Shown: positions 1 through 40,075 of the stretch, piece by piece
How positions within the stretch are numbered: position 1 is the first letter of the stretch
How the letters are laid out: the number at the start of each line of letters is the position of its first letter
DNA from: an uncultured archaeon
GTDB lineage: Archaea; Aenigmatarchaeota; Aenigmatarchaeia; CAZXUR01
Length of the DNA stretch: 44,086 nt
Reading direction: 5' to 3'
NCBI GenBank assembly: GCA_964644245.1
Contig: CAZXUR010000006.1
Coordinates: 1 to 44,086, forward strand
Position numbers and translations under genes: made by a program
Notes under the pieces: model-generated
What the model saw: the letters and a program-made list of their open reading frames with translations, nothing else
The model's database searches: none
What the model was told of the DNA's origin: nothing

Positions 1-1
1 A

Positions 2-763
2 ATTATAAGAAAGATTAAAGATAGAGATTCGGAAGTACTTGGTAAAATGGAAAAAGAAATGTATGGCGGTGGAGAGAAATTCTATCAACCATTAAAAGAA
101 TTCTTAAAGGACTATGCCCAGAAAGATCTAGAGAAAATACCTTACGGAGTTTATAGTGGACTGAAGAAAAATAAAATTTCTGGTATCTTTTTTTATCATA
201 AATACTTAGATGATTTTCATTTTTGGTATTTGTATGATGTAGATAATGATTCAATTATAACTAACAAAACTGAAATAATTGATTTTATATCCTGTAGAGA
301 AAATAAAAAAAGAAATATACCAAATTTCTTTGAAAGGGTATATAAAATAAATAAAGAGATAGTAAAAGAAATTGAAAAAACTTATAAAGAGCTCGAATTG
401 AGCCAGAAACAGGACTCAAGAGGAAAAGAGTTAAGTAAAAGTCGTGGTACAGTATTTGTAAATAAAATGATTGAAGATATAGAAGAGAGAATAGAATCAT
501 ATTTAGAAGATTTTCCAAACGACGATTCAATAGAGAAAGAATGGGAAAAAGTAGAGGATAAACTCTTATATGTGCCTCACACCAAAAAAAGATTACAAAA
601 ACTAAGAAAATTATGGAAAAAATATAAAAAAGATGAGGATTGGAAAAAATTAATGGAAGAAATAAGTAAATTTATGGAAGGGAAAGAACCTATAAAAAAG
701 AAGGAAATAAAACCGTTCAACAAAGAGTCATTGAAATTAATAACAATAGATTTCATTTCGTGA
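2..763 (+). CDS. hypothetical Lys/Glu-rich protein; 3' part of an ORF open to the left window edge
   Basis: The frame of the 47..763 ORF has no stop codon back to nt 2, so the gene is probably 5'-truncated by the window. No catalytic motif recognised. It ends 4 nt before 768..980. Confidence 0.5.
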   Translation: MIRKIKDRDSEVLGKMEKEMYGGGEKFYQPLKEFLKDYAQKDLEKIPYGVYSGLKKNKISGIFFYHKYLDDFHFWYLYDVDNDSIITNKTEIIDFISCRENKKRNIPNFFERVYKINKEIVKEIEKTYKELELSQKQDSRGKELSKSRGTVFVNKMIEDIEERIESYLEDFPNDDSIEKEWEKVEDKLLYVPHTKKRLQKLRKLWKKYKKDEDWKKLMEEISKFMEGKEPIKKKEIKPFNKESLKLITIDFIS

Positions 764-767
764 TATT

Positions 768-980
768 ATGGGAATAGCAGCTAAAAAGTTCGCCAAACAG
801 AAAGCAAGAATGTCTGTATTCCGTAAAGGTAAATCCCACCTCGATCAACGAGCCGAACAATTCGGCAAGTACCCAAAATGCAGAGGCCTATTCGAAGATT
901 GCCCTAAGGAAATCAAGGATCCTAAGAACCCACCCAAGGAATGTAGGAGTTGTCCTGAACTGCCTGGGAAGTATAGGTAA
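768..980 (+). CDS. small Cys-containing protein (70 aa); its C-terminus is the only intact in-frame copy of the island repeat
   Basis: ATG ORF. Two Cys pairs (KCRGLFEDC and ECRSC). Ends KNPPKECRSCPELPGKYR-stop. The last ~19 codons recur as start-less remnants five more times downstream. Confidence 0.55.
   Translation: MGIAAKKFAKQKARMSVFRKGKSHLDQRAEQFGKYPKCRGLFEDCPKEIKDPKNPPKECRSCPELPGKYR
924..980 (+). repeat. gene-end repeat copy 1 (in frame, end of 768..980): KNPPKECRSCPELPGKYR-stop
   Basis: aagaacccacccaaggaatgtaggagttgtcctgaactgcctgggaagtataggtaa. Confidence 0.9.
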
Positions 981-992
981 TTCTAAAAGAGA

Positions 993-1748
993 CTAAATTA
1001 TGGGAATCTGTGATAAAACGTTTGTATGAAGTAAGTAGAGAACGATCATAACTGCAAACGTTAAAACTGTTTTTGAATCTCTGCCCAATCTTTTAGAAGT
1101 TAACAAATCTGCCCATGTTAGAATAATCAAGAGAATGGTCAGAACGGCTATAACATAAGTAATTTTGTACATAGCATCGGTAAGAGTTAACATTCCTGCT
1201 TGTTGCATATTTGAAACACTAATCCATTGTTCGATTTTATCTCTCCATTCACCCTCCCATTTAGGTGTTGCTTCAAAATATCTTTTATAAATGTCGGAAT
1301 CCTGTTTTACTGATTCCTGACTGCAATCCAAAAATTCCAGCGGACTTGAAGAAGTTATTTGTATCTTGTAAGAACCTACAACATCAAAATCATATCTACT
1401 CTTCCAGTCAGGTCTAAGTCCTCTTTCGTATTTCGGAAAATAATAGTTTGATGCCCTGGGCTCGAGAAAAATATTATACGTCTTATTTTCTCCGATTGTC
1501 TCTCTATCTGGATTGAAAACTATGACGGTTATGGTGTTATTAATTGGTGTATCACCGAGATTAGTAAGAGTGATATTATAGTAAAACCAACCCCCAACAA
1601 AAAACTCCTTTTCACTAGTTCCAGAGATAACATCCAAGTCAATCTCAACACAATTATTACACCTCAAGCCTTGTTCAAGGCACGTATATTCTGCGAACGC
1701 CAAGCTAGGAAAAACAAGTAGGAATAATAAAATCAAAAACTTCTTCAT
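993..1748 (-). CDS. secreted / membrane-anchored protein (251 aa)
   Basis: N-terminal signal peptide MKKFLILLFLLVFPSLAFA. Two C-terminal hydrophobic helices. TATA-like gtttaaata lies between it and 1807..2112. Confidence 0.7.
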   Translation of the reverse strand: MKKFLILLFLLVFPSLAFAEYTCLEQGLRCNNCVEIDLDVISGTSEKEFFVGGWFYYNITLTNLGDTPINNTITVIVFNPDRETIGENKTYNIFLEPRASNYYFPKYERGLRPDWKSRYDFDVVGSYKIQITSSSPLEFLDCSQESVKQDSDIYKRYFEATPKWEGEWRDKIEQWISVSNMQQAGMLTLTDAMYKITYVIAVLTILLIILTWADLLTSKRLGRDSKTVLTFAVMIVLYLLHTNVLSQIPII

Positions 1749-1806
1749 GTATTAGAATGGGGGATCTAAAGTTTAAATATCTAATGGAAACTATATATTT
1801 CAGAAG

Positions 1807-2112
1807 TTACTTCACCCTCTTCCTTTTGAAAATAACATCCGCGACGGTCCTACCGTAAGACTTTCCTTTGGGTCTTATCGTAACAGTCTTCCCCCGTAGT
1901 CTGAAAAGCCTCTTCTTAACTAATCCGTAACCTCTTTCAGGAGCATCCATCCCAGCCATTCTGATAAACTGAGATCCTGCTACCCTCCTTCTAACCTTGA
2001 AGGTATCTCCATCTACTATACTTTGGACTTTTCTTCTAACAGACTTCCTTCTACGTTTAAGGGCAGCTATACTCAAAATAACATGGAAAACCGCATAAAC
2101 ATGTCGGTTCAC
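1807..2112 (-). CDS. small staphylococcal-nuclease (SNase/thermonuclease)-like protein with N-terminal hydrophobic segment
   Basis: VDGDTFKV, IRMAGMDAPE and SYGRTVADV match the SNase Ca-binding and catalytic motifs. At 101 aa it is shorter than typical SNase. Confidence 0.6.
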   Translation of the reverse strand: MNRHVYAVFHVILSIAALKRRRKSVRRKVQSIVDGDTFKVRRRVAGSQFIRMAGMDAPERGYGLVKKRLFRLRGKTVTIRPKGKSYGRTVADVIFKRKRVK

Positions 2113-2163
2113 GATTCGGCAGATGTCGTTAGAAATTAAAATTTCGGAGTAAATGCTGTAGAT

Positions 2164-2403
2164 ATGGGTATAAGAGACTTGCCGACTGTGATTATTGGCC
2201 TAGTAATAGTAGTTCTTGCTCTCGGATTTGGAACACGTATTTTGACTGAAATCGAGGAGACAAACGGTGAAGAAGTTCAAAATGTAACTCAGGGAGGCAT
2301 AAATACATTGAAGATATTTACACAATCCCCAGATACAATAATACTTGTATTCATTATCATAATAACAATTCTCGGTGGGTTGAAATATTTTGGAAAAATC
2401 TAA
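2164..2403 (+). CDS. small two-helix membrane protein (79 aa)
   Basis: Two hydrophobic stretches flank an acidic loop. AT-rich TATA-like tract gaaattaaaattt lies upstream. Confidence 0.5.
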   Translation: MGIRDLPTVIIGLVIVVLALGFGTRILTEIEETNGEEVQNVTQGGINTLKIFTQSPDTIILVFIIIITILGGLKYFGKI

Positions 2404-2417
2404 ATCTTCAAGACCTC

Positions 2418-2474
2418 AAGAACCCTCCTAAAGAATGCAGGAGTTGTCCTGAACTGCCTAAGAAGTATGGGTAA
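2418..2474 (+). repeat. gene-end repeat copy 2 (no start codon): KNPPKECRSCPELPKKYG-stop
   Basis: aagaaccctcctaaagaatgcaggagttgtcctgaactgcctaagaagtatgggtaa. Similarity to copy 1 extends back to about 2403, directly after the stop of 2164..2403. It is in a different frame from that ORF. Confidence 0.9.
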
Positions 2475-2547
2475 GTTTACCGGAAATAGCGGCAATGTGC
2501 ACTCGAAGAGTTTTAAAGTCTGAATCACTATAATGTACTAGGTAGAT

Positions 2548-3705
2548 ATGAGTATACAAAAGACTCTCATGCCCGATTCAAAGGCAGTCAGAGAGATAGG
2601 CGGTAAAAAAATTAATTTTCGAGAGGGAGTTTTCTGGATACAGAAACAGAGGCAGAAACATAGTCTCCATTACGTAACACCTTACCAGGCAAGTTTTGCA
2701 CCACAGATTCCTGAATTTTTCATCAGAAGATACTCGAGTCCAGGAGACATGGTTTTGGATCCTTTCTGTGGCAGGGGAACGGCAGTCCTGGAAGCAAACC
2801 AAAGCGATAGGACGGGTATAGGTATTGATGTATCACCTCTTGCTATAGAGATCGCTAAGGCAAAGTTAAGAAATGTTGAAATCGAAGAAGTAAAAAGAAG
2901 GTTGAAAGAAATAGATTTCTCAAAAGAAAAGAAAGAAGGATTCAAAAGATTCGAAGATATTTACCATCCTAAAACATACTCTCAGATAGTAAATCTAAAA
3001 GAACAGCTAAAGGTCGATAAAATAGATAATTTGATAAGGGCCGTTGTGTTGGGCAGGCTTCATGGGCATTCCCCGGGATTTTTTTCTGTATTCACATTCA
3101 ATGTGATCAGTCCTTCGCCTAAATCAATTAAGAAACAAAGCAAAAAACATGGAAGTAAGCCTGAGTTTAGGGACGTTGTACCAAGAATTTTAAAAAAGGC
3201 CAAAACTGTCCTTAAAGACAAAGTAAAAGAACAGAAAAAATCAAAAATATATAGAAAAGATTCCAGGAATCTTCCTCTAGATAGAAATTCCATTGACTTC
3301 ATAATAACCTCACCCCCGTTTCTTGACACAGTAAACTATATAGATGATAACTGGATCAGACTGTGGTTTTTAGATGTTGACATAGACAAACTAAGAAAAG
3401 AAATAGTTCAAACGAGTGATTTGAAGAAATATAAAAAATTCGTCATGAAAAGTATGAAAGAAATGAATAGAGTGCTGAAACCTGGTAAAAACTGTGTCAT
3501 AGAAGTTGGTGACGTGACACATAAGTCTAAGAAGCTCAATCTGGATGAAGTTGTAGTAAAATTGGCCGAAAAATCTGGATTTTCTGTGGAGGAGATACTA
3601 ATCAACTATATGTCTTCACCTAAAATATCAAAAGCCTTTGGAAAAGATTCTAAAGATGTGGGTACACAGACCAATCGTTGTGTAATCCTAAGGAAACCTT
3701 TATAA
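2548..3705 (+). CDS. SAM-dependent amino-methyltransferase, probably DNA N4-cytosine/N6-adenine type
   Basis: AdoMet motif VLDPFCGRGTAVLEA near the N-terminus and catalytic motif IV IITSPPF about 180 aa later (motif I before IV, long intervening region). TATA ttttaaag at ~2511. Confidence 0.75.
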   Translation: MSIQKTLMPDSKAVREIGGKKINFREGVFWIQKQRQKHSLHYVTPYQASFAPQIPEFFIRRYSSPGDMVLDPFCGRGTAVLEANQSDRTGIGIDVSPLAIEIAKAKLRNVEIEEVKRRLKEIDFSKEKKEGFKRFEDIYHPKTYSQIVNLKEQLKVDKIDNLIRAVVLGRLHGHSPGFFSVFTFNVISPSPKSIKKQSKKHGSKPEFRDVVPRILKKAKTVLKDKVKEQKKSKIYRKDSRNLPLDRNSIDFIITSPPFLDTVNYIDDNWIRLWFLDVDIDKLRKEIVQTSDLKKYKKFVMKSMKEMNRVLKPGKNCVIEVGDVTHKSKKLNLDEVVVKLAEKSGFSVEEILINYMSSPKISKAFGKDSKDVGTQTNRCVILRKPL

Positions 3706-3728
3706 GAATTATTCTCTGAATAACAGTC

Positions 3729-4361
3729 ATGACAAAAAAGGTTGAATTAAAAATACGTGACCCTAAGAACATATACCATGAAGTTGCTTTAGCACTAGCA
3801 CCCCATAGAAAGAAGAAGGAAGGCTCGATAGAATTCATTGTAGAAGGAAGCATAAAAAATCCAATAATAGGGATAAGGTACCCAGGAAAAAAGTTAGTGA
3901 AGAGGGAATTGAAGGTTAAAAGAAAAAATTCAGCTGAATGGGGAAATTTATATGATTTCTATGTAGTTCCGTATGTTGATGGTAAAGAAGAGAAAAAGGA
4001 AGACTTTACTTTTGAAAAAATATTAAAAGACTACGAAAAGAATAAAAGAAAAAGTGAAAAGTTTTGGAAATGTGTTGAAGAAATATATAAAGAAAATGTA
4101 CTCACAAGCAAACCTCCAAAGTTGCCTGGTATAGACTCAAAGTTGTTTCTGCTTGTATTGAAATGGCTGTGGATAGAAGAAGATTTCAATTATAAATATA
4201 ACTGGAAAGACGTAGAATCTCCGGTTAGGTATGTCTTGATAAGTAGAACTGATAATTTGATGAGTAAAGGTGCCGGAAGGGCAAAGTTTTTTTCTGCTAT
4301 GATTTTATTGAGATATGGGTTTACGTTTGATGAAGTAAAAAAAATAATTCCTTTATATTAA
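3729..4361 (+). CDS. hypothetical Lys-rich protein (210 aa); candidate partner (restriction endonuclease?) of the methyltransferase
   Basis: Starts 23 nt after the MTase stop on the same strand. No motif recognised. The function is suggested only by adjacency. Confidence 0.5.
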   Translation: MTKKVELKIRDPKNIYHEVALALAPHRKKKEGSIEFIVEGSIKNPIIGIRYPGKKLVKRELKVKRKNSAEWGNLYDFYVVPYVDGKEEKKEDFTFEKILKDYEKNKRKSEKFWKCVEEIYKENVLTSKPPKLPGIDSKLFLLVLKWLWIEEDFNYKYNWKDVESPVRYVLISRTDNLMSKGAGRAKFFSAMILLRYGFTFDEVKKIIPLY

Positions 4362-4408
4362 ACCCAGAGTGCAAAACGTGTCCGGAACTGCCGGGGAAGT
4401 ATAGGTAA
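4361..4408 (+). repeat. gene-end repeat copy 3 (no start codon): NPECKTCPELPGKYR-stop
   Basis: aacccagagtgcaaaacgtgtccggaactgccggggaagtataggtaa. Begins at the stop of 3729..4361, in the -1 frame relative to it. Confidence 0.9.
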
Positions 4409-4447
4409 CTGTTCTAATCAGTCTCCAAAAGAAAGAGTGGAAAATAA

Positions 4448-4906
4448 TCAGGCCTTCACAACGATTGTGTGGGCCAGCATGTCTCCGAGCCTCTGATTCT
4501 TTTTTGAAAACCATATCAACAAAACACCGATGAGATATAGGAGTTGGCCATCGATAATCCTCAGGAGATTCCTGATGAAGGCGTGCCACACGGATGGAGG
4601 GCCTTTCGCGTCTTCAGTCACGACCCTTATGCCTAACATCTTCTTTCCTGGGGTCTGGCCTGTCTTGCTCTCAAAGTATGTGAAATAGCCCCAAAACAAA
4701 AACAAAAACATCAGTGGTGTTATAAAAACAACGATAAATTCTTTGATTAATGTTACATTGGCTGAGCTTAGCAACAGCGTGGTAAAAAATGCTGTAAAGA
4801 AAATCGCGGTTATAACAAAACCAAGTATGAGAGCGAATATTATCATCATGTCGACTAAGAACGCTATGGCTCTGCTTCTGATTCTAGCATGTCTTATCTT
4901 TACCAC
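4448..4906 (-). CDS. RDD-family membrane protein
   Basis: Three hydrophobic helices plus ESKTGQTPGKKMLGIRVV and a C-terminal RLGD motif typical of RDD domains. Confidence 0.7.
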   Translation of the reverse strand: MVKIRHARIRSRAIAFLVDMMIIFALILGFVITAIFFTAFFTTLLLSSANVTLIKEFIVVFITPLMFLFLFWGYFTYFESKTGQTPGKKMLGIRVVTEDAKGPPSVWHAFIRNLLRIIDGQLLYLIGVLLIWFSKKNQRLGDMLAHTIVVKA

Positions 4907-4933
4907 ATTAGTAATTGTAAATTCTATATAAAT

Positions 4934-4966
4934 AGATGTCCTGAACTGCCTAAGAGGTATAGGTAA
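4934..4966 (+). repeat. gene-end repeat copy 4 (shortest): RCPELPKRYR-stop
   Basis: agatgtcctgaactgcctaagaggtataggtaa. It follows a minus-strand gene, so it cannot be the tail of the neighbouring ORF. Confidence 0.85.
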
Positions 4967-5102
4967 CTATGTCATGAGATATCGTTGTGTTTTCTCTTCA
5001 ATTCTCTCCATTTCTTTTCATCCAATATCATACATCATCTAAAACAATTTTGTATTCAAGGCACATATCTGTCTGCCACTCCCAGTAGTGGTGAAGGATA
5101 TA

Positions 5103-5114
5103 TTTATATAAATA
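5103..5114 (+). promoter_or_regulatory. TATA box of the precursor / radical-SAM / protease operon
   Basis: tttatataaata is centred ~26 nt upstream of the ATG at 5134 (leaderless-type spacing). A short hairpin ccact-cccagt-agtgg lies just upstream. Confidence 0.5.
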
Positions 5115-5133
5115 TAACTACGTTATCTGATGT

Positions 5134-5301
5134 ATGTCTAAGGCTTTGATCAAGCAGGAAGAGTTGGGGAGTCTGACTGAGATACAGAGAGAAGTAGTCG
5201 AAAGTGGGTTGGTAAAGAATAACAACGATTACACCGACATAAGCTGTTATAGCGATTACAGTAACTGGGGACAGTACAGCGACTACAGAGGCAATAAATA
5301 A
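5134..5301 (+). CDS. candidate RiPP precursor peptide (55 aa)
   Basis: Below the ORF-track cutoff; translated by hand as MSKALIKQEELGSLTEIQREVVESGLVKNNNDYTDISCYSDYSNWGQYSDYRGNK. TATA box upstream. The stop is 12 nt before the radical SAM start. Charged leader-like N-terminal half and aromatic-rich repetitive C-terminal half. Confidence 0.55.
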   Translation: MSKALIKQEELGSLTEIQREVVESGLVKNNNDYTDISCYSDYSNWGQYSDYRGNK

Positions 5302-5313
5302 AAAGTCAGACTT

Positions 5314-6402
5314 ATGCTAACTTGTATATTGAAGGTTACGGAAGATTGTAATCTCTCCTGCAAATACTGTTATGTTCCCGAAAACTCTCCCAAAGGAATA
5401 TTATCTTCCGAAACTCTTGAAGAAAGCCTAAAACAGGTCCTAAGAACTGAAGACGAGAGAGTTGACTTTATATGGCACGGAGGTGAACCGCTTCTTTCTG
5501 GTGCTGAACTTTATTTGGATGGAATGGAATATATGGAAGAATACAATGAAAATGATGCCATAATAAAAAATAAAATTCAAACCAATGGGACCCTCATAAA
5601 AGACGAACATGTTGATCTATTTGAGGACTACGATTTTGGTGTGGGCATAAGCCTTGACGGGCCAAAAGAAATTCAGGATTATCAAAGAATTCATCCCAAT
5701 GGCCGCGGTTCTTATGAGGAAGTGATGAACGGGATAAATAAACTTAAAGAAAGAGAAGTGGACTTTGGGATATTATCGGTCTTAACAAGAAAAGGTCTTG
5801 GAAAAGAAAAGGAAATATATGAAGAAATTAAATCACACACAGACCACGGAAAATTGAATTTCTTTCTTCCCGAAGGGCATGGAAGAAAATACGAAGACAG
5901 ACTCGGAATAGACAACAAAGATTTTTTCAAACTTTTTAGAAATTTTTATGAGTTGTGGAAAAATGAAGAAAATACTGACTTTCGTTTGAGTCCACTAGTG
6001 GAGATAGTCACCAGTTTTGTTTCTGAAAATAACGATAGAAAAAATTCTCTTTGTGCCTTTAACAATTCATGCCTCAGTAACGGATATATTTCTGTAAGTC
6101 CTCACGGCGATGTTTATCCTTGTGGGAGAGTCAGCGGGATTGAAAGGTATAAGCTCGGGAATGTTAACGAGAAAGAAAATTTGATAGAAAGAATAAGAAG
6201 AGAAGATTTGCCAGAAATGAATAGAAAAAGGAACGACTCAATAGAATCCTCCTGCGGTGATTGTAATTATCTAGAAATTTGTTATGGTGGCTGTGCCCAT
6301 GACTCCCAATACGAATATGAAGATTTAATTCACAGCACCCCTTACTGCAAAGGGAGAAAAGACTTGTTTAGACACATAGAGGGGGATATGAGAAGTGACT
6401 AA
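5314..6402 (+). CDS. radical SAM enzyme with full SPASM domain (peptide-modifying maturase type)
   Basis: CNLSCKYC (CxxxCxxC) at residues 12-19. GGEPLL. C-terminal SPASM pattern C-x11-G-x4-C followed by CGDCNYLEICYGGC (Cx2Cx5Cx3C) and a final Cys. No N-terminal RRE-like extension. Confidence 0.9.
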   Translation: MLTCILKVTEDCNLSCKYCYVPENSPKGILSSETLEESLKQVLRTEDERVDFIWHGGEPLLSGAELYLDGMEYMEEYNENDAIIKNKIQTNGTLIKDEHVDLFEDYDFGVGISLDGPKEIQDYQRIHPNGRGSYEEVMNGINKLKEREVDFGILSVLTRKGLGKEKEIYEEIKSHTDHGKLNFFLPEGHGRKYEDRLGIDNKDFFKLFRNFYELWKNEENTDFRLSPLVEIVTSFVSENNDRKNSLCAFNNSCLSNGYISVSPHGDVYPCGRVSGIERYKLGNVNEKENLIERIRREDLPEMNRKRNDSIESSCGDCNYLEICYGGCAHDSQYEYEDLIHSTPYCKGRKDLFRHIEGDMRSD

Positions 6403-6973
6403 CTGGTTAAAAGAGGGTGAACAGACCAAGATAACCCCGAAAATCAAGGAGATAGGTAAGAAACTACAGAAGAAGAGCCAGTATGATGCTCATTTGGTTC
6501 TCAATATTCTGGAATGGGTGAGGAAGAATATTCGCCTGGAAAGAAAAGAGGAAATTAAGAAAAAGTTATTCAGGAAAAGGACTTCTGACAAGATAATTAG
6601 AGATGGTTACGCCACCGGATGCACGGACCTTGCACTCGCATTTATACCCATAGCCAGGTCGTGCGATATACCCACCAAATACGTGGAGACAGTTAACAAA
6701 AAGTGGCTAAAAAAGGCAACGAAAGAGGTAAGCATGATCAAAAAAGGACAAATCAAAGGTCACGTGGTAGCAGAATGCAAAATCGGGAACAAATGGTACG
6801 TAGTGGATGTGGATTCGGGGACTGTGGTTATAAAAATAGAAAATACATCCTTCAATAGAAATTTTGAGGTAGTTGCTGAAGGTTTGGACAGCTGGGATCT
6901 CGGAGTGAAAAGCCTGCAGGATTTGAAAAATTTCTTTCAAAACAAGTTACAGGACGTGTCCGGAACTGCCTAA
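6395..6973 (+). CDS. transglutaminase-like cysteine protease (candidate leader peptidase)
   Basis: Cys-His-Asp core pattern: GYATGCTDLALAFIPIARSCDIP, GHVVAE, WYVVDVD. Overlaps the radical SAM gene by 8 nt. Confidence 0.65.
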   Translation: MTNWLKEGEQTKITPKIKEIGKKLQKKSQYDAHLVLNILEWVRKNIRLERKEEIKKKLFRKRTSDKIIRDGYATGCTDLALAFIPIARSCDIPTKYVETVNKKWLKKATKEVSMIKKGQIKGHVVAECKIGNKWYVVDVDSGTVVIKIENTSFNRNFEVVAEGLDSWDLGVKSLQDLKNFFQNKLQDVSGTA

Positions 6974-6986
6974 GAATTATGGGTAA
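6951..6986 (+). repeat. gene-end repeat copy 5: RTCPELPKNYG-stop
   Basis: aggacgtgtccggaactgcctaagaattatgggtaa. It overlaps the end of 6395..6973, which reads it in another frame (..VSGTA-stop). Confidence 0.9.
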
Positions 6987-6991
6987 AAACA

Positions 6992-7690
6992 TTATTTTTT
7001 AATTTCCTTCAGAATCAGGTCGACGAGTTTTTTCGTATCAGTGAAGTTGGTCATTGGTGTCTTCTCGAGGGCGAAGACACCCTTGAAGGAGCTGATGAAG
7101 TTATCCTTGCGTATGTCTCTCCTGATTTTGAGGAGGTTTGTTCTTAAGACAGTTGTATCTCCTCTCAAGACGTGTTTCACGGTTTTGTCGAAGTCTATCC
7201 CAGAACAGAGGGCGACTATGTCTCTGATATCCGTGAACCTGGCAGCATGCATCTTTACAGCAATCTGAAGTTCCTTCTCTGGTATCCTTACCAGGGCCTT
7301 GTCTTCGATCCCGGTTATCTCCTTTGTTATGGAGTTCTTCCAGAAGTAGCTGAAGCTCCATGAGGCATCCGTGTCCCTCGAGGTCAAGGCGTTTACCATC
7401 AGGTCGACCGTCACAGGGAACTCTGTCTTCGTGGTGTAAGACTCGAACCAGCCCTCGTATTCGCTCTCCAGCTCCCTGAAGTCTTTCTTCACAAAATTCA
7501 CCTTCTTGAGGACTTCCCTGAATTTTGGCATGGACTTGTCCTGGACGACTATGTCAGCATCCACCGAGAACCTGTGTTTGAAGGCTGAGACGGCGTAACC
7601 GCCTACCAAGATGAACTTAAGTTTCTTCTTTTGGAACTGATTGAGGACTCGGAAGATATTGCTCTCCCTGTCTATGAAAGCCTTAAACAT
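6992..7690 (-). CDS. nucleotidyltransferase-fold protein, AbiEii/DUF1814-like (tentative toxin)
   Basis: LVGGYAVSAFKHRFSVDADIVV fits the GG-x13-DxD minimal nucleotidyltransferase signature. 8-nt overlap with the upstream wHTH gene. Confidence 0.55.
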   Translation of the reverse strand: MFKAFIDRESNIFRVLNQFQKKKLKFILVGGYAVSAFKHRFSVDADIVVQDKSMPKFREVLKKVNFVKKDFRELESEYEGWFESYTTKTEFPVTVDLMVNALTSRDTDASWSFSYFWKNSITKEITGIEDKALVRIPEKELQIAVKMHAARFTDIRDIVALCSGIDFDKTVKHVLRGDTTVLRTNLLKIRRDIRKDNFISSFKGVFALEKTPMTNFTDTKKLVDLILKEIKK

Positions 7691-8336
7691 CTGAATTCTC
7701 CCTGTATTTGATCTTCAAACCCAAGCCGTACATCTCGTCCAACATTTCCAAGGCAGGCTGGAAGTTGTAGACATGTTTTTTCGCGAAGGCAACCGCGTCC
7801 TTCAAAGGCAAGACAGGTGTTTTGTCTATTGACTCTGATTTGATCTCAGAAACCGGGAACAAGAAGAAGTAAATGCCTGCCATCGGTTTGTCAGTCGTAT
7901 GTTTGATGGATAAATTAGAAAAGAACTTTCTCCACTTAGACAAATCCTTTTTCAAGACGTTTATGAAAATCGGATAGTTCTCTGCAGACCTGCCTATGTT
8001 GTAACCGCCTTTGGTCCATATGAAAATTGCATCAGTCGACGTGAAGCAGTAAGGTAATCCAATAAAATTCGGCAAGTCATAAGCGGTCTTCAAGGACAAG
8101 TGCTGCCCCAAAACGATTTTTATCAAAGAAAAGAACTTTTTGTAGATGTTGCTGTCCTTGTTAATTCTGACCCTGTTTCCTTCTCTGGTTAAAACACCCA
8201 ATTCTCTTAACTGTTCTACCCATTGGTACGTCCAGCCGTAGGAAATCTTTGTTTTTCTAGAAATTTCTCTAATCGAATCACCATCTCTTGCGGCCAACAA
8301 GATTTTCGCTGAATACGGATTAATGACCTCTATCAT
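7683..8336 (-). CDS. winged-helix DNA-binding protein, AbiEi-like (tentative antitoxin/regulator)
   Basis: N-terminal wHTH-like IREISRKTKISYGWTYQWVEQLRELGVLTREGNRVRIN plus a ~140 aa C-terminal domain. Operonic with 6992..7690. Confidence 0.55.
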   Translation of the reverse strand: MIEVINPYSAKILLAARDGDSIREISRKTKISYGWTYQWVEQLRELGVLTREGNRVRINKDSNIYKKFFSLIKIVLGQHLSLKTAYDLPNFIGLPYCFTSTDAIFIWTKGGYNIGRSAENYPIFINVLKKDLSKWRKFFSNLSIKHTTDKPMAGIYFFLFPVSEIKSESIDKTPVLPLKDAVAFAKKHVYNFQPALEMLDEMYGLGLKIKYRENSDV

Positions 8337-8359
8337 ATTATCATTATAGTGATAATTAG

Positions 8360-8366
8360 TTTAAAT
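8360..8366 (-). promoter_or_regulatory. TATA box for 7683..8336
   Basis: The minus strand reads catttaaac ~27 nt upstream of the ATG at 8336. Confidence 0.5.
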
Positions 8367-8490
8367 GTTTTTCGGTTGTACGTTGCCGTTATTACCGATA
8401 GAGTTCTGCGTTAACTTGCCAAATCATAAAAAGGTGAAAAACAAACCTCCTGAATGCAAAATCTGTCCGGAGTTGCCGGGAAGCATATAA
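8365..8490 (+). CDS. possible 41-aa ORF ending in repeat copy 6
   Basis: ATG at 8365, in frame with ..KNKPPECKICPELPGSI-stop. The ATG sits inside the divergent gene's TATA box, so expression is doubtful. Confidence 0.25.
   Translation: MFFGCTLPLLPIEFCVNLPNHKKVKNKPPECKICPELPGSI
8440..8490 (+). repeat. gene-end repeat copy 6 (most diverged): NKPPECKICPELPGSI-stop
   Basis: aacaaacctcctgaatgcaaaatctgtccggagttgccgggaagcatataa. Five silent differences from copy 1 within the six C-P-E-L-P-G codons. Confidence 0.8.
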
Positions 8491-8711: not shown

Positions 8712-8927
8712 ATGAAGGAATTTGAGGCCAAGCCAAAGAAATGGGGCAATTCTTTAGGTGTCACCATACCCAAGGAAATCGTGGAAGAGGAAGGTGTGAG
8801 TACCGGAAAGAAGGTGAAGGTCTTCATCCTTGGCAGGAAGAAGGACGTCAAGGACGTGTTCGGGTCGTTGGAGTGGAGGAAACCAACTCAGAAAATTATG
8901 GACGAGATAGATAAAGGTTGGGAGTAA
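8712..8927 (+). CDS. vapB: AbrB/SpoVT-fold antitoxin (VapB type)
   Basis: KKWGNSLGVTIPKEIVEEEGV swapped-hairpin motif. TAATG overlap with the PIN gene. Confidence 0.8.
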   Translation: MKEFEAKPKKWGNSLGVTIPKEIVEEEGVSTGKKVKVFILGRKKDVKDVFGSLEWRKPTQKIMDEIDKGWE

Positions 8928-9289
8928 TGATTTACTTCTTCGATACGTACGCATTTATCGAGGTAATCAAAGGTAATCCGAGGTACGAGAAATACTTGGA
9001 AGTAGACAAGGTGACCACAAGACTGAATCTGATGGAGTTGTACTTTGCACTCCTGAGGGATTTCAACAGCAAGACGGCGGGCAAGTATTACGACTTCTTC
9101 TCAGTTTTTGCCATACCGGTCGAGGACTCGACTGTGAAAAAGGCGATGTTCTTCAAGTTGAAGAACAAGAGAGAGAAACTCAGCTACGTGGACTGTATCG
9201 GTTACATGATTGCCTTGGAGAACGGAATAAAGTTCTTGACTGGCGATGAAAAGTTTGAGGACAAAAAAGGCGTTGAATTCGTCAAGTAG
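8927..9289 (+). CDS. vapC: PIN-domain ribonuclease toxin (VapC type)
   Basis: MIYFFDTYAFIE (first acidic residue) and LSYVDCIGYMIALENGIKFLTGDEKF. The ATG at 8927 overlaps the vapB stop; the track start at 8918 is a TTG. Confidence 0.8.
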   Translation: MIYFFDTYAFIEVIKGNPRYEKYLEVDKVTTRLNLMELYFALLRDFNSKTAGKYYDFFSVFAIPVEDSTVKKAMFFKLKNKREKLSYVDCIGYMIALENGIKFLTGDEKFEDKKGVEFVK

Positions 9290-26466: not shown

Positions 26467-27591
26467 TTACTCGATGAAGAACTGGAACTCAGACACTGTC
26501 CCTCCCCCACAGTAGTCCTCGAGCATCACGTAAATATCATTGGCCTCGCCGTACTTGAAAGCAGATGAAGCGGTTAGTTCGACCGGGGGTATGCACCATC
26601 CGGTGCCTCTGCAACCGTCGCAACCCCTCCACACTTCCTGCTCCGGACCAGAATCGTAACCGGTCGTCCCGCTGTAGTATATGAGGTCCTCGTTGACGTA
26701 GAAGTAGAAGTTGTCGTCTATGCATATGTAGCCGGACGTGCCCTCGGGGTCAGGAGCTCCGCTGGGGGCCTCTCCTTCCCCGCTTATGTAGAGCTTGTGC
26801 CCTACGAAAAGTTTGTTCATGGTCAGTTTGGTCCTCATCCATCCGTGGGCAAGACATTCCGGCGAACGGATACAATAGGCGTTCTCAAAACCGACCTGGT
26901 GGGGGTTGTCCGGAGGGTCGTGGGAGGAGCAGCACCCCGGCTGATTCCAGTCAGTCCTGCCGTCTACGCTGACCCAATTCAGGCCTCCGGAAGGAACGGA
27001 CGCCGGGCAGTTTCCCTGGTAAGAGCCCAAGAGGTTGTTGTTCTCGTTTGTCAGTGGGTCACCGCCGAACTCGGTCCTCTCCCATGTGCTGTAGGAATAA
27101 GAGGTCTGCCTGGACTCGTAGTTGCCCCATATGGAACCGCTTTCCTCTCTCTCCAGACCGTTCTTTGATATGTACTCCACCCTCACTTCCATGGAGTAAC
27201 AATCCCCTGCCCTTGCCTCGCAGTCTTCGGAGACGTTGCCCATGAACGCGATTTTATCGCCCTTTGAAACGCGGGGGTCGGCAATCCTGTCCATGTTCGC
27301 GTGGCCACACAACTTGTCCTTCGACCAGACGGAAACATTTTCTATGGTTATGGTCTCACTGACCTTGCCTTCCACGTATATGTAGAACTTGTTGGATAGA
27401 TAGGGGGAATCACTGGATATGACTATGAAGTCTGTTATGAACAGGTGTGGACTGTCATAATGCCCCTTGAGGCTGAACGTGCAGGGCGATATTATTCCCA
27501 GATTCCACAGTACGATGCCCACCATGGTCACTATGGCAATACTGAATCCGTATGTGGTCAGGAACTCCATGACTGCCTGTGCCTTTGCCAT
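26467..27591 (-). CDS. large archaeal type IV pilin-like surface protein (class III signal peptide)
   Basis: MAKAQAVMEFLTTYGFSIAIVTMVGIVLW matches the (K/R)(G/A)Q..ME(F/Y)L.TYG class III signal. Cys-rich 340-aa extracellular part. Confidence 0.7.
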   Translation of the reverse strand: MAKAQAVMEFLTTYGFSIAIVTMVGIVLWNLGIISPCTFSLKGHYDSPHLFITDFIVISSDSPYLSNKFYIYVEGKVSETITIENVSVWSKDKLCGHANMDRIADPRVSKGDKIAFMGNVSEDCEARAGDCYSMEVRVEYISKNGLEREESGSIWGNYESRQTSYSYSTWERTEFGGDPLTNENNNLLGSYQGNCPASVPSGGLNWVSVDGRTDWNQPGCCSSHDPPDNPHQVGFENAYCIRSPECLAHGWMRTKLTMNKLFVGHKLYISGEGEAPSGAPDPEGTSGYICIDDNFYFYVNEDLIYYSGTTGYDSGPEQEVWRGCDGCRGTGWCIPPVELTASSAFKYGEANDIYVMLEDYCGGGTVSEFQFFIE

Positions 27592-27665
27592 GTATAGACG
27601 TTTACCTTATGTGATATAAAAGCTTGAAAAACTATAAAATAAAAACTTTGACCACAATTATTAAC

Positions 27666-29186
27666 ATGCCCAAACCCATAGGAACGGTCATATCGACTCC
27701 TGATTCTCCCAGCTCACAGAAGTTCCGGTTCGTGGTCGACGGAAAGGTCAAGAAGTCCCAGTTCGTAAAAGTGTCCTCCGGAGGCAAGGTCATATCCAGG
27801 GTGGCAGACATGTTCAAGGCCAACCGATACTTCGAGCGGGCCGAGTCCGTCCAGCAGTTCGAGATGAACGACCTGCCCACGGAAAAGTGGGATTATATGG
27901 TAGCAGAGGCCGTGCCACTGGGCATATTCAGTTCAAAGGGTTCTTCCCGTCCCAACCATCCGGTGTCTCCGGGGGACAACGTCTACAACGCCTCCAAGAA
28001 GACATTGAAGGAGTTTCTGGGACTGGACAAGGACGGGCTGAATATAGGTGAACTGGACATCCACAACCATGCGGTAAAACTGAACATGACTCGCCTGTTC
28101 CAGAAGCACCTGGCCATAGTCGCACAGTCGGGAAGCGGCAAGTCTTACCTGGTAAAAGTGATGCTGGAGGAAATACTCAACCGGGAACCGGATTCGGGAC
28201 AGGTGGCAGCAGTGGTCATAGACCCGCACGGTGAATACAAATGCTTTGACGTGGACAAGAAGTTCCAGAACAAGACCAAGGTGATAAAGGGTGAGAACAT
28301 ACGGATATCACTCCCCCACATGTCTTCGGGCCTCTTGAGCGGATTGTTTCCAGACCTGAGTTCAGTCCAGAGACGGGAACTGATGAAATCCATGGCAGGA
28401 GTCAGGAGGGCCAGGCAGGGCAACGTGTTCGGTCTCAAGGAACTGGTCACCCAGATAAAGGAAGACGAATCCATGAGCCCCAAGACCAAGAACGTGCTTC
28501 TATCGGGGCTGGAGACTGCCAACCGCATGAAACTGCTGGACGTGTCTGACAACCCCTCTTTATCCCAACTGATAAAACAAGGGTGTCTGACGGTTATAGA
28601 CCTGAGCAATGTGTCCTCATTCCGCAAAAGACAGATAATAGTGGACTTCCTGTCCAGAAAACTGTTCTCAGCCCGGAGAAAGAAAATGATACCCCCTTAC
28701 GTCCTGTTCGTGGAGGAAGCCCACAACTTCGCCCCGGAGACAGCCAAGAAGAGGAATGCAGTGTCTAAAGGCGTACTGATAAAGCATGCCAGGGAAGGCA
28801 GGAAATTCAACGCATGCCTCTGCCTCGTTTCCCAGAGGCCCAAGTACCTGTCGACAACGGCGCTGTCACAGTGCAACACACAGATAATACTGAGAATCAC
28901 CAATCCCTACGACCTGGAGCACATAGGCAAGTCGTCAGAAGGACTGACCAAGGAGGTGCTCTCCACCATATCTTCACTGAGGACCGGCGAGGCAGTAGTG
29001 GTGGGGGAGGCAGTCAACTTCCCCATATTCCTCAATGTCAGGGAAAAGGAAGTGGGAGATGTGGAAGTGGGAATTCCCCTGGAGAAGGAAGCCAAAAGCT
29101 ACAGGACTGATAAGAAGAAGGAAGACAAGGACATGGACGCTTTCATGCCTCCGAAGACGGAGAGGTCGGGGTCCAAGACCGGTTGA
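27666..29186 (+). CDS. herA: HerA-type hexameric DNA translocase/helicase
   Basis: Walker A AQSGSGKSY, VIDPHGEY, Walker B LFVEEAHNF. The ATG at 27666 gives the typical MPKPIGTVIS start with a TATA ~25 nt upstream. Confidence 0.8.
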   Translation: MPKPIGTVISTPDSPSSQKFRFVVDGKVKKSQFVKVSSGGKVISRVADMFKANRYFERAESVQQFEMNDLPTEKWDYMVAEAVPLGIFSSKGSSRPNHPVSPGDNVYNASKKTLKEFLGLDKDGLNIGELDIHNHAVKLNMTRLFQKHLAIVAQSGSGKSYLVKVMLEEILNREPDSGQVAAVVIDPHGEYKCFDVDKKFQNKTKVIKGENIRISLPHMSSGLLSGLFPDLSSVQRRELMKSMAGVRRARQGNVFGLKELVTQIKEDESMSPKTKNVLLSGLETANRMKLLDVSDNPSLSQLIKQGCLTVIDLSNVSSFRKRQIIVDFLSRKLFSARRKKMIPPYVLFVEEAHNFAPETAKKRNAVSKGVLIKHAREGRKFNACLCLVSQRPKYLSTTALSQCNTQIILRITNPYDLEHIGKSSEGLTKEVLSTISSLRTGEAVVVGEAVNFPIFLNVREKEVGDVEVGIPLEKEAKSYRTDKKKEDKDMDAFMPPKTERSGSKTG

Positions 29187-29259
29187 GACAATTCGTGTAT
29201 ATTCTCAAACAGCGAAAAGTTTAAATACTCTAATAGTAACGACTGATTGGTGATAACAG

Positions 29260-29418
29260 ATGTCAGCAAACGAAAGTTACACTCAGAAGGGGGATACTGA
29301 GATAACTCCCCTGGAACGTCTCTACGGTCCGGGAGCCAAAATAGTCAACGGGATCCTAGTGGTGGGAGAAAACGAGGAAAACTACAAGACTTCGAAACCC
29401 AGTGACCCTCAATTTTAA
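29260..29418 (+). CDS. possible small protein (52 aa)
   Basis: Hand-translated: MSANESYTQKGDTEITPLERLYGPGAKIVNGILVVGENEENYKTSKPSDPQF. Consensus promoter aaagtttaaata ~30 nt upstream. Confidence 0.35.
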   Translation: MSANESYTQKGDTEITPLERLYGPGAKIVNGILVVGENEENYKTSKPSDPQF

Positions 29419-29420
29419 TT

Positions 29421-38469: not shown

Positions 38470-38934
38470 CTACCAAAGGGAAGAAACGATTTCTTCCTTT
38501 CCTTCCTCACATACGAATACTTGCCACATCTTCCTGATGTCCTCTTCATCCGTGTCAAAGGAAGCTTCCATTCCGATGGTCCCGAAGAGTCCTTCGTCCA
38601 GTTTGAAATCTTCCGGAATCCTGAAGGAGTATTCGGTTGAATAAGTTTTCCCGGGTTTCACCAGAACATCTTCCTCCTTTTCACCAAAGCCGTATTCATC
38701 TTTTATGCGGAACGTACCTTGATACTGACGCTTGGACCTGTTTCTTATGCCCACTTCATATTCTAACAACTCGCCGGGGTTGAATTTATCATCCAAATCC
38801 GGGTCATCCACTTCCTTCAGTGACTGGAAGTAAAGGAATATTTCCCTCTGGTCGTAGTCTTTTCTGACTTTCGTACTTCGCTTCTTCTTTTTCTTACCGC
38901 CAAAAAACAGAAACATGATGTTACTCCCCGTCAA
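38470..38934 (-). CDS. hypothetical protein (about 148-154 aa)
   Basis: ORF between tfb and srp54. The Met at 38916 avoids overlap with the tfb stop. No motif recognised. Confidence 0.5.
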   Translation of the reverse strand: MTGSNIMFLFFGGKKKKKRSTKVRKDYDQREIFLYFQSLKEVDDPDLDDKFNPGELLEYEVGIRNRSKRQYQGTFRIKDEYGFGEKEEDVLVKPGKTYSTEYSFRIPEDFKLDEGLFGTIGMEASFDTDEEDIRKMWQVFVCEEGKEEIVSSLW

Positions 38935-40051: not shown

Positions 40052-40075
40052 CGGACAGGAGAACGTTGATTGTCG

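Follow-up and report, generated by a model that had tools for sequence, protein, structure and literature searches.

What three closely packed genes accomplish together in a DPANN archaeon is the question raised by this locus. The window analysed here (the whole stretch of 44,086 nucleotides) had been described, in an original prediction made from the sequence, as holding a precursor, maturase and peptidase module which probably makes a multiply crosslinked Tyr/Trp peptide, and as far as computation reaches our results support that description. We regard the trio at 5134..6973 as a compact RiPP operon of the triceptide type, with a probability of roughly 0.7, in which the enzyme would most likely staple Tyr/Trp-x-Asp/Asn triplets into small rings. 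The sequence and its list of open reading frames place the three genes within 1.9 kb in the order precursor, maturase and transglutaminase-like gene, all on the forward strand (Table 1), and the cassette contains neither a transporter nor an immunity gene.

Table 1. Position and character of the genes, subregions and boundary repeats of the cassette.
Feature	Position	Strand	Description and basis
Precursor peptide gene	5134..5301	+	55 aa, MSKALIKQEELGSLTEIQREVVESGLVKNNNDYTDISCYSDYSNWGQYSDYRGNK; listed ORF
Leader-like half	residues 1-31, nt 5134-5226	+	part of precursor
Core	residues 32-55, nt 5227-5298	+	triplets YTD, YSD, YSN, WGQ, YSD, YRG
TATA-like element, putative archaeal promoter of the cassette	5103-5110	+	TTTATATA; direct sequence reading, function from spacing only
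Radical SAM/SPASM peptide maturase	5314..6402	+	362 aa, without RRE; Pfam, NCBIfam, PDB alignment
Transglutaminase-fold Cys/His/Asp protein, putative leader peptidase	6395..6973	+	192 aa, GTG start; PF01841 8e-11
Repeat copy 4, upstream cassette boundary	4930..4966	.	core TGTCCTGAACTGCCTAAGAGGTATAGGTAA; family D2
Repeat copy 5, downstream cassette boundary	6950..6986	.	CAGGACGTGTCCGGAACTGCCTAAGAATTATGGGTAA; overlaps end of transglutaminase-like ORF

The 55-codon reading frame had been proposed to possess its own TATA box and to end 12 nt before the radical SAM gene; both are present, the latter gene starting with the ATG at 5314. Direct reading places the A/T-rich TATA-like element approximately 27 nt upstream of the peptide's ATG, a spacing which would suit a leaderless archaeal transcript. 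The protein collection also lists the exact 55-aa sequence among its called proteins, and searches with ten precursors returned no match to known precursor families in NCBIfam or Pfam. Within the core, the tiling of triplets reported earlier is evident, a YTD being followed by the contiguous series YSD-YSN-WGQ-YSD-YRG, and the aromatics Y33, Y39, Y42, W45, Y48 and Y51 all share one phase of three. Asp or Asn occupies the +2 position in only four of these six triplets. A motif scan of the peptide agreed with the earlier remark that C/S-x-P/A-x-R is absent from it. Among shuffles of the peptide, a period-3 run of five aromatics arises at a frequency of 7.5e-5; the same run length is reached in 6 of the 847 stop-to-stop segments of the window, so that the aromatic pattern in itself is no more than moderately unusual. 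The case draws its weight from the precursor's conservation in other loci.

The product of the second gene matches PF04055 (Radical_SAM, 3e-22) and PF13186 (SPASM, 9e-07). Both cysteine motifs attributed to it are in place, the CxxxCxxC of residues 12-19 as Cys 12, 16 and 19, and the complete SPASM motif as Cys 247, 253, 270, 314, 317, 323, 327 and 345. In an alignment to PDB 4K37, these eight auxiliary-cluster cysteines pair one-to-one with the eight of anSMEcpe, amounting to two full clusters, and Y-P-C270-G271-R272 falls on Y-P-C276-D277-F278 of that enzyme. As anticipated, there is no N-terminal extension and thus no RRE, an absence which is normal for this enzyme group and no peculiarity of the window. 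Profile searches of 5314..6402 against SPASM, anSME and cyclophane-maturase families had been recommended in the original prediction; in these the enzyme reached no curated NCBIfam cut-off of any named cyclophane maturase or anSME family. DynA (NF041298) scored best at 245.9 bits against a cut-off of 450, followed by anSME (TIGR03942) at 236.4 bits against 349.45. The named 3-CyFE profiles, which are sub-family models and not a model of the class, gave 168 bits against 310 for GrrM/OscB (TIGR04261), 152.3 against 445 for YhhB, 139.9 against 425 for AmcB, 120.7 against 370 for FxsB and 94.6 against 450 for XyeB (TIGR04496). The top matches, comprising these seven profiles and DarW, are all peptide cyclophane maturases or anSME. 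The closest solved structure is anSMEcpe, and by sequence the enzyme's clade lies nearer to it (268.8 bits with profile A3) than to ChlB (154 bits).

Comparison across loci offers a firmer footing. In each of the four closest homologues with sufficient flanking sequence, a short ORF rich in aromatic-x-Asp/Asn motifs adjoins the enzyme gene. Upstream and same-strand ORFs rich in Y/W-x-D/N were found beside the closest homologues L001 (55% identity; precursor ..FEWSDGDDFPWNDWGDWNDYTDIGSEY), L002 (44%; WGDWGDWSSDWVTDYAD..WSDWADWSADYIDYP) and L003 (39%; YYSDYSYSDYYKYSDHYADYDN), and at least 30 further loci, both bacterial and archaeal, also carry such an ORF. L001 shares the leader segment LIKQEELGSLTEIQRE of the window peptide (as LISEEELGRLTPIQEE), and its precursor is followed by the maturase and then by a transglutaminase-like gene with an equal 8-nt overlap. 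At L004, another close homologue (39% identity), no aromatic-x-Asp/Asn ORF was found. When small ORFs were scanned in 169 loci, 34 of 6498 held at least four [YWFH]-x-[DN] motifs in 30 aa, and 33 of the 34 lay on the enzyme's strand, mostly adjoining its gene. The residue at +2 in these cores was Asp in 147, Asn in 45 and Glu in 17 of 275 cases. Across about 33 precursors it is the aromatic residue and the Asp/Asn at +2 that are conserved, while +1 varies (G, S, D, T, N, A). The cores of the relatives are dominated by Y/W/H-x-D and most lack Cys; each peptide bears 4-9 motifs, with motif number and core length varying widely, and helix motifs of the (N-P)-x-[LV]-[RK]-E-[VIL] type recur in their leaders.

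The glycine at the position of Asp277 distinguishes a class. Among 161 related loci, with classes assigned from a MAFFT alignment under fast settings and sulfatase signatures counted within 3 kb of the enzyme, those with Gly-Arg/Lys in place of Asp277 (C-G-R/K) numbered 29, of which 19 featured a peptide and none a sulfatase signature; of the 65 loci with canonical C-D-[FH]-[FY] anSMEs, none featured a peptide and 10 a sulfatase signature. The contrast in peptides between the two classes is pronounced (Fisher p = 5.6e-13). In an unbootstrapped neighbour-joining tree, the window enzyme falls in a clade of 44 leaves, 18 of them peptide-linked and none a canonical anSME. DynA is also the best-scoring curated profile for most of the peptide-linked relatives that were scanned. 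Two of the outcomes which, according to the original prediction, would speak against it are a short ORF not conserved beside homologous enzymes and an enzyme grouping firmly with sulfatase maturases; we find the ORF conserved, and the enzyme stands apart from those maturases.

The third gene overlaps the maturase gene by 8 nt, as had been noted, and the two are translationally coupled through this overlap. The Cys/His/Asp core ascribed to its product was likewise confirmed, with Cys76 and His123 invariant among eight homologues and Asp138 conserved in seven of the eight. An AF2 model of the protein has a pLDDT of 89, and the best PDB matches in a fold search of it are cysteine proteases and isopeptidases (3ISR, 3KD4, PeiP and LapG); a sequence search against the PDB gave chance-level matches only and no characterised peptidase. 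The gene is linked to maturase and precursor in the window and in L001, the closest enzyme homologue, where gene order and overlap are identical, while the linkage at L089 involves a different radical SAM enzyme. Linkage fails in L002 and L003 as well as in L085, L086 and L087, the last three being homologues of the transglutaminase-like protein with no radical SAM neighbour. By its fold, and with linkage in only 3 of 7 contexts, the protein is a putative protease which would most likely act in leader removal.

Taken as a pathway, the cassette may operate as follows. The 55-aa peptide would be translated, probably off a leaderless transcript, and its N-terminal amphipathic leader (..EELGSLTEIQREVV..) would be recognised by the RRE-less radical SAM/SPASM enzyme. 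The enzyme would then take a hydrogen from the C-beta of the +2 residue, mostly Asp or Asn, and join that carbon to the Tyr or Trp ring two residues upstream. Up to six three-residue cyclophanes could result, five of them tiled head to tail along YSD-YSN-WGQ-YSD-YRG, with each ring expected to cost the peptide 2 Da. The co-translated transglutaminase-fold cysteine hydrolase would most likely cut off the leader thereafter. In its DPANN producer, the finished peptide probably serves in antagonism or signalling.

The setting of the trio bears on how it may have arrived. Its host is an archaeon, probably one of the Aenigmatarchaeota, for whose placement an SRP54 homology search was used. As originally proposed, the trio lies between the fourth and fifth of the repeat copies: a repeat search with alignment of the copies found five copies of a repeat of approximately 37 nt in the window, and the last codons and stop of the transglutaminase-like ORF fall within copy 5. 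In the surrounding low-GC island the neighbouring cassettes are defence-like: one combines a type II DNA methyltransferase and its partner ORF, another an AbiEii-like nucleotidyltransferase and an HTH protein, and a third encodes MazE/PIN as a pair. The flanking repeats and low GC suggest that the trio is a mobile cassette. No recombinase domain was found in the ORFs flanking the array, the window beginning just 943 nt ahead of repeat copy 1, and the repeat core was absent from the first four related loci and from viral contigs. Folding six 91-nt repeat regions as single-stranded DNA produced no attC-type hairpin, the z-scores, from 0.05 to 1.34, showing no advantage over shuffled sequence, and repeat copy 4 translates in frame to ..CPELPKRYR*, with which the small ORF 768..980 terminates. 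Since the repeats lack hairpin potential, are conserved in sequence and read as the end of that ORF, we rejected their interpretation as integron attC sites. A broader and decidedly tentative proposal, which we consider possible though on balance doubtful, is that the trio is an exchangeable unit of an undescribed cassette-capture array in an Aenigmatarchaeota-like DPANN archaeon, and that its cargo comes from a large superfamily of aromatic-x-Asp/Asn cyclophane peptides which has yet to be curated. Growth of such an array would proceed through site-specific insertions at the 3' terminus of 768..980, a small four-Cys gene whose final 10-20 codons would be copied at the end of every unit, with no attC-type hairpin taking part. 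The superfamily's maturases would carry the Asp277-to-Gly change (C-G-R) as their mark, would occur across DPANN archaea, CPR bacteria, Bacteroidales and further groups, and would at present go under generic radical SAM or sulfatase-maturase-like labels.

Other accounts of the trio deserve consideration, and the most substantial of them, which we hold to be unlikely, accepts the peptide as substrate but assigns the enzyme some radical chemistry other than an aromatic-to-C-beta cyclophane, such as formation of formylglycine or aminomalonate, beta-hydroxylation of Asp/Asn, a daropeptide-like ether, a dynobactin-like C-N link or epimerisation. There is precedent for the first of these, as a 3-CyFE is reported to have made formylglycine and aminomalonate in vitro in the hands of Ma et al. 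(in Angew Chem, 2021), and Ser is frequent at +1 of the window peptide. The enzyme moreover keeps the whole two-cluster architecture of the anSME type, resembling anSME more closely than ChlB, and its best HMM is DynA, whose product dynobactin has a C-N link beside a C-C link (PMC11002830). What the roughly 33 precursors conserve, however, is the aromatic residue and the Asp/Asn at +2, not the residue at +1, and Tyr-x-Asp and Trp-x-Asn/Asp cyclophanes are documented (PMC11002830). A daropeptide-like ether needs aromatics at i and i+2, where here they stand at i and i+3, and the lack of Cys in most family members argues against thioethers. That the enzyme is instead an anaerobic sulfatase-maturating enzyme, converting Cys or Ser of a sulfatase encoded elsewhere to formylglycine beside a merely fortuitous small ORF, has in its favour the second rank of TIGR03942 (236 bits) and anSMEcpe as best PDB match. 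Yet that score lies under the cut-off of 349, and Asp277 of anSMEcpe, reportedly proposed by Goldman et al. in 2013 as the catalytic base, is Gly271 here. The enzyme's clade lacks canonical anSMEs, its class showed none of the sulfatase signatures found beside the canonical enzymes, and a motif scan recovered no such signature anywhere in the 44-kb window. On these grounds of score, missing Asp277, clade placement and absent signatures, we rejected the sulfatase-maturase interpretation as largely refuted and very improbable.

The defence-like character of the neighbouring cassettes (methyltransferase, AbiEii-like, MazE/PIN) lends some appeal to the notion that the trio itself forms one of the island's defence or toxin modules, for instance a radical SAM effector with a protease, and not a pathway for a secreted natural product. 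We consider this improbable. PADLOC returned only a match of the generic radical SAM core to pVip (55.9 bits, residues 6-160) and nothing for the peptide or the transglutaminase-like protein, leading us to reject a known defence system, and relatives of the module occur in ordinary chromosomal contexts in other organisms, beside tRNA synthetases and UbiA. A RiPP can itself serve in conflict, such that this account and a RiPP pathway are not fully exclusive. PQQ and mycofactocin pathways likewise combine a radical SAM/SPASM enzyme, a short peptide and a peptidase, and with an equal gene set the window peptide might be thought the precursor of a small cofactor, excised by the hydrolase after a single crosslink. 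Here the 4-9 motif repeats per peptide are difficult to accommodate, as a motif number and core length that vary among relatives suit a peptide product and not one cofactor. The module also has no PqqD/RRE partner and no further tailoring enzymes, and resides within a low-GC accessory island, so that a cofactor precursor seems to us highly improbable.

If the triceptide-type reading of the operon holds, it has several implications. To our knowledge, few archaeal RiPPs have been characterised, and the literature that we consulted describes no triceptide made by a DPANN archaeon. Attachment to other archaea is the DPANN way of life, which makes a part in competition or host interaction conceivable for a small crosslinked peptide. 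That the module, inside a cassette bounded by repeats, has restriction-modification and toxin-antitoxin units as neighbours suggests that such peptide pathways travel as accessory cargo. For annotation, we offer the rule that an anSME-like radical SAM/SPASM protein with Gly-Arg/Lys at Asp277 and an adjoining aromatic-x-Asp/Asn peptide is a peptide maturase, which separates such proteins from true sulfatase maturases. Being self-contained and only 1.9 kb long, the cassette is also an easy target for heterologous expression.

Several known systems provide points of comparison. The window enzyme agrees with anSMEcpe (PDB 4K36-4K39) in its radical SAM core and in every one of the eight auxiliary-cluster cysteines; it differs in the Gly for Asp277, in having no sulfatase substrate in view and in belonging to a separate, peptide-linked clade. 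ChlB (PDB 9GM3/9GMC), the only solved triceptide synthase known to us, represents the second family among the enzyme's PDB matches. It acts on a YDR motif, according to the review literature. Its match is much weaker (136-154 bits), and in the alignment the cysteines of auxiliary cluster one, present in the window enzyme, are missing from it. The transglutaminase-like protein invites comparison with leader peptidases of RiPP pathways such as the lasso peptide B protein, which is transglutaminase-like or papain-like, and with LapG and PeiP, all of which share its Cys/His/Asp transglutaminase core; it has no sequence-level match to a characterised peptidase, and some of its homologues are encoded with no radical SAM gene nearby.

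Further comparisons concern the maturases of peptide cyclophanes. DynA, the best curated profile, is equal in length to the window enzyme and also without an RRE, but the match is one of 246 bits against 450, and the dynobactin core (WNSNVHSYRF), which carries one C-C ring and one C-N ring (PMC11002830), is unrelated and has no tiled aromatic-x-D array. GrrM/OscB and XyeB/XncB are also RRE-less radical SAM/SPASM enzymes of approximately 360-385 aa whose profiles can be aligned over their whole length with that of the window, and they act on repeated motifs to give Trp-to-Asn/Asp or Trp-to-Asn/Arg C-beta cyclophanes, the OscB product being joined from Trp C7 to Asn/Asp Cbeta and that of XncB from Trp C6 to Asn/Arg Cbeta (PMC11002830). 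Xenorceptide A2, for example, contains WVN cyclophanes. The window enzyme is nonetheless far below the cut-offs of both, stands beside a different precursor family and is without the Asp-protease or transporter set of the XYE systems. YxdA/YxdB (WP_226048651.1), likened here by motif and gene arrangement, likewise places a Tyr-x-Asp precursor beside a radical SAM/SPASM enzyme, and in the YxdB product Tyr C3 at position i is joined to the Asp Cbeta at i+2 (Sugiyama et al. JACS 2022, as summarised in PMC11002830); the window core has YTD, YSD and YSD. The window departs from that system in its DPANN host, in a transglutaminase-fold hydrolase as accessory gene and in the repeat-bounded cassette which houses the module. 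The triceptide analogy drawn in the original prediction is apt, the documented Tyr-Asp and Trp-Asn/Asp three-residue cyclophanes matching the aromatic and the Asp/Asn at +2 which the family conserves. Since Tyr-x-Asp and Trp-x-Asn/Asp cyclophanes are already known from YxdB, OscB and XncB, the cassette appears to add an archaeal member to an existing class, the triceptides.

The three genes, their motifs, the gene overlap and the aromatic triplets described in the original prediction are present as stated, and its interpretation, a precursor and maturase module yielding a crosslinked Tyr/Trp peptide, finds support in two sequence comparisons: conservation of the precursor and separation of the enzyme from the sulfatase maturases (anSME). 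The 55-aa peptide, whose ORF ends 12 nt before the radical SAM gene, is charged in its N-terminal half and carries a core at its C-terminal side, in which six aromatics (Y33, Y39, Y42, W45, Y48 and Y51) share a single phase of three within the triplets YTD, YSD, YSN, WGQ, YSD and YRG. A five-aromatic run at period 3 arose in 7.5e-5 of trials when the peptide was shuffled. As the same run length is reached by 6 of the 847 stop-to-stop segments in the window, the pattern alone is not decisive.

Features of the window
Feature	Position (nt)	Strand	Remarks
Low-GC island	1-8490		abuts core chromosome carrying informational genes
Repeat copy 1	944-980		3' end of ORF 768..980
Repeat copy 2	2438-2474		
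Type II N6/N4 DNA methyltransferase	2548-4361		PADLOC MTase_II, 266 bits; 210-aa partner, family unknown
Repeat copy 3	4372-4408		
Repeat copy 4	4930-4966		flanks trio upstream
A/T-rich TTTATATA	5103-5110		~27 nt before peptide ATG; read from sequence
Peptide gene	5134..5301	+	co-directional with the other two trio genes; ORF listing
Radical SAM gene	5314..6402	+	362 aa; Radical_SAM and SPASM; domain profile matches
Transglutaminase-like gene	6395..6973	+	192 aa, GTG start; Transglut_core; domain profile match
Repeat copy 5	6950-6986		flanks trio downstream
AbiEii-like nucleotidyltransferase, HTH protein	6992-8336		
Repeat copy 6	8437-8490		diverged
MazE-like/PIN toxin-antitoxin pair	8712-9289		
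374-aa ORF	26467-27591		adjoins DNA-repair cluster; no Pfam match
DNA-repair cluster	27624-32986	-/+	Rad50 (zinc hook) and Mre11-like phosphoesterase minus; HerA-type helicase plus
TFIIB/TFB paralogues	38921-41023	-	two, adjacent

Close homologues of the enzyme are rare: among ~5.8 billion proteins searched, the nearest showed 55, 44, 39 and 39% identity (loci L001 to L004), and the rest at most 38%. L001 has the identical three-gene order, including the 8-nt overlap of the transglutaminase-like and radical SAM genes, and its peptide, which ends in FEWSDGDDFPWNDWGDWNDYTDIGSEY, shares a leader with that of the window (LISEEELGRLTPIQEE versus LIKQEELGSLTEIQRE). The ORF immediately upstream of the L002 enzyme carries WGDWGDWSSDWVTDYAD...WSDWADWSADYIDYP, and L003 has a peptide ORF with ...YYSDYSYSDYYKYSDHYADYDNIHK. 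The expected short ORF thus adjoins the enzyme in these three relatives, though not in L004, where an aromatic-x-D/N ORF was looked for at the locus and none was found. A second, distinct peptide-maturase-like set, in which a 448-461-aa radical SAM/SPASM protein is accompanied by a Peptidase_MA_2 protein, occurs in L002 (767-2999, - strand), with a Cys-rich 74-aa ORF (..CYQCHGCDSTCACICQQCQQK), and in L089 (304-3155), with a homologue of the transglutaminase-like protein.

Scanning species-representative genomes and metagenomes added 160 loci with enzyme relatives at 24-37% identity. Across all loci, 34 of 6498 small ORFs held at least four [YWFH]-x-[DN] motifs within 30 residues; 33 of the 34 share the enzyme's strand, most directly before or after its gene. 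In the Pacearchaeota relatives L172 and L174 the precursor lies downstream instead. The precursors have in common an amphipathic leader motif of the NP-x-[LV]-[RK]-E-[VIL]-[IA] type, and in their cores the middle residue of the aromatic-x-D/N motif varies and the residue at +2 is Asp in 147, Asn in 45 and Glu in 17 of 275 cases. Examples include WGN x9 (L156), WxN x9 (Desulfospira, L071), CHTESPYSDGYGDAGYGDYSDA (L102, L104, L109), tandem copies of FQDFGYGDEYSEAPYNDYNDCHGDYYD (L096, L100) and HTDHTDYS (L119). Precursors with 7-9 tandem Trp-x-Asn repeats, e.g. AFPFWNNWMNWMNWRNWVNWNNWGNWVNW, lie 1.3-1.5 kb upstream of the enzyme, with genes intervening, in Desulfospira (L071 1566-1745) and other bacteria (L016 1262-1420, L156 903-1097). 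Two tandem Y-x-D-type precursor genes precede a single maturase in Bacteroidales and other metagenome loci (L096 1522-1895, L100 1551-1896, L006 2119-2994). Precursors with just one or two motifs (L097 1674-1874, L099 1228-1431, L092 1837-2160, L098 449-601) keep the C-termini ..YANVYKYAFF and ..YTEAYSGE-x-A, which suggests sub-families making one or two rings.

Among solved structures, the enzyme matches anSMEcpe best and next the triceptide synthase ChlB and CteB, and in alignment each of Cys 247, 253, 270, 314, 317, 323, 327 and 345 has a single counterpart in one of the two anSMEcpe auxiliary clusters. It reached none of the curated profile cut-offs, the best scores being 245.9 for DynA (cut-off 450), 236.4 for anSME (349) and 168 for GrrM/OscB (310); DynA preceded anSME in eight of nine relatives scanned with profiles, and the order was reversed in L008. 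Cys270-Gly271 sits opposite Cys276-Asp277 of anSMEcpe, where Asp277 was reportedly proposed by Goldman et al. in 2013 as the catalytic base. We sorted 161 related enzymes by the residue at this position and scored sulfatase signatures within 3 kb. An aromatic-x-D/N peptide lay near 19 of the 29 C-G-R/K loci (Gly-Arg/Lys at Asp277-Phe278), with a sulfatase signature at none, whereas the 65 canonical C-D-[FH]-[FY] loci had 0 and 10, respectively (Fisher p = 5.6e-13 for the peptide contrast); several more C-G-R loci show weaker precursors under relaxed criteria. In a neighbour-joining tree (no bootstrap), the window enzyme falls with L001-L004 in a 44-leaf clade with 18 peptide-linked members and zero canonical anSME; given also the sub-cut-off anSME score, it does not group firmly with sulfatase maturases. 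No sulfatase signature occurs anywhere in the window, and the peptide, as predicted, lacks the anSME target motif C/S-x-P/A-x-R. The predicted lack of an RRE (RiPP recognition element) likewise holds, since the radical SAM core begins at residue 12 (CxxxCxxC at 12-19). Such absence is normal for this enzyme group; the DynA, GrrM/OscB, YhhB, AmcB, FxsB and XyeB profiles each aligned with the enzyme from their first few positions.

The start of the transglutaminase-like gene is fixed by an N-terminal WLKEGEQTKITP kept in all homologues, of which only seven were found. Cys76 and His123 are invariant (8/8 sequences) and Asp138 is present in 7/8. The AlphaFold model is confident (pLDDT 89), and its nearest PDB folds are the putative cysteine proteases 3ISR (TM 0.61) and 3KD4, the pseudomurein endoisopeptidase PeiP, LapG and vasohibins; the match to crosslinking transglutaminases is poorer. 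A radical SAM gene adjoins it in the window, L001 and L089; the L089 enzyme is a different one, and a Peptidase_MA_2 protein is also there. The homologues in L085, L086 and L087 adjoin unrelated genes. For this sub-clade, a putative role in leader removal is therefore plausible.

The window is archaeal chromosome, with genes for two TFB, exosome subunits, SBDS, eIF6, SRP54, FtsY and Rad50/Mre11/HerA; among named relatives of its SRP54, the best matches all come from Candidatus Aenigmarchaeota/Aenigmatarchaeota MAGs (~60% identity). The long diverged direct repeats D3, D9 and D14 (~73% identity) stem from the TFIIB/TFB paralogues, and the 374-aa ORF could be NurA. GC is 37% over 1-8490 versus 51% over 10001-44086. 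Six copies of a 30-60 nt repeat bound five unrelated gene units: unknown membrane proteins, the methyltransferase with its partner ORF, an RDD protein, the RiPP trio, and the nucleotidyltransferase with its HTH protein. Translated in frame, the repeat gives (KNPPKEC-xx-)CPELP-xx-Y-x-stop, the last 10-20 codons of the 70-aa four-Cys ORF 768..980. A folding test found no hairpin potential in the repeats, and no recombinase was found among the window ORFs examined. The trio fills its unit exactly, as the final transglutaminase-like codons fall inside repeat copy 5. The arrangement suggests that units were inserted site-specifically, one after another, at the 3' end of ORF 768..980, and mobility of the cassette is a reasonable inference. 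The transglutaminase-like gene takes its last eight codons and its stop (6950-6973, ..QDVSGTA*) from copy 5, in a frame shifted by one from the repeat's own, and the L001 orthologue ends differently; this C-terminus may have been remodelled at a recombination junction. The methyltransferase, nucleotidyltransferase and toxin-antitoxin units around the cassette are defence-like.

YxdB joins Tyr C3 to Asp C-beta, OscB Trp C7 to Asn/Asp C-beta and XncB Trp C6 to Asn/Arg C-beta, each between residues i and i+2, and xenorceptide A2 contains a WVN cyclophane (PMC11002830 for the three enzymes). The positions so joined are the conserved positions of this precursor family. The parsimonious reading is that the product would be a multiply crosslinked triceptide (a peptide with three-residue cyclophanes), with up to six rings conceivable in the window peptide. 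A thioether product is unlikely, Cys being missing from most precursor relatives; other radical outcomes on the peptide are possible. Daropeptide-type ethers, which would require aromatics at i and i+2, do not fit the window peptide. Triceptides of the Tyr-x-Asp and Trp-x-Asn/Asp types have been characterised before, so the cassette probably adds another case of that class, notable for its DPANN host, compactness, putative transglutaminase-fold peptidase and cassette setting.
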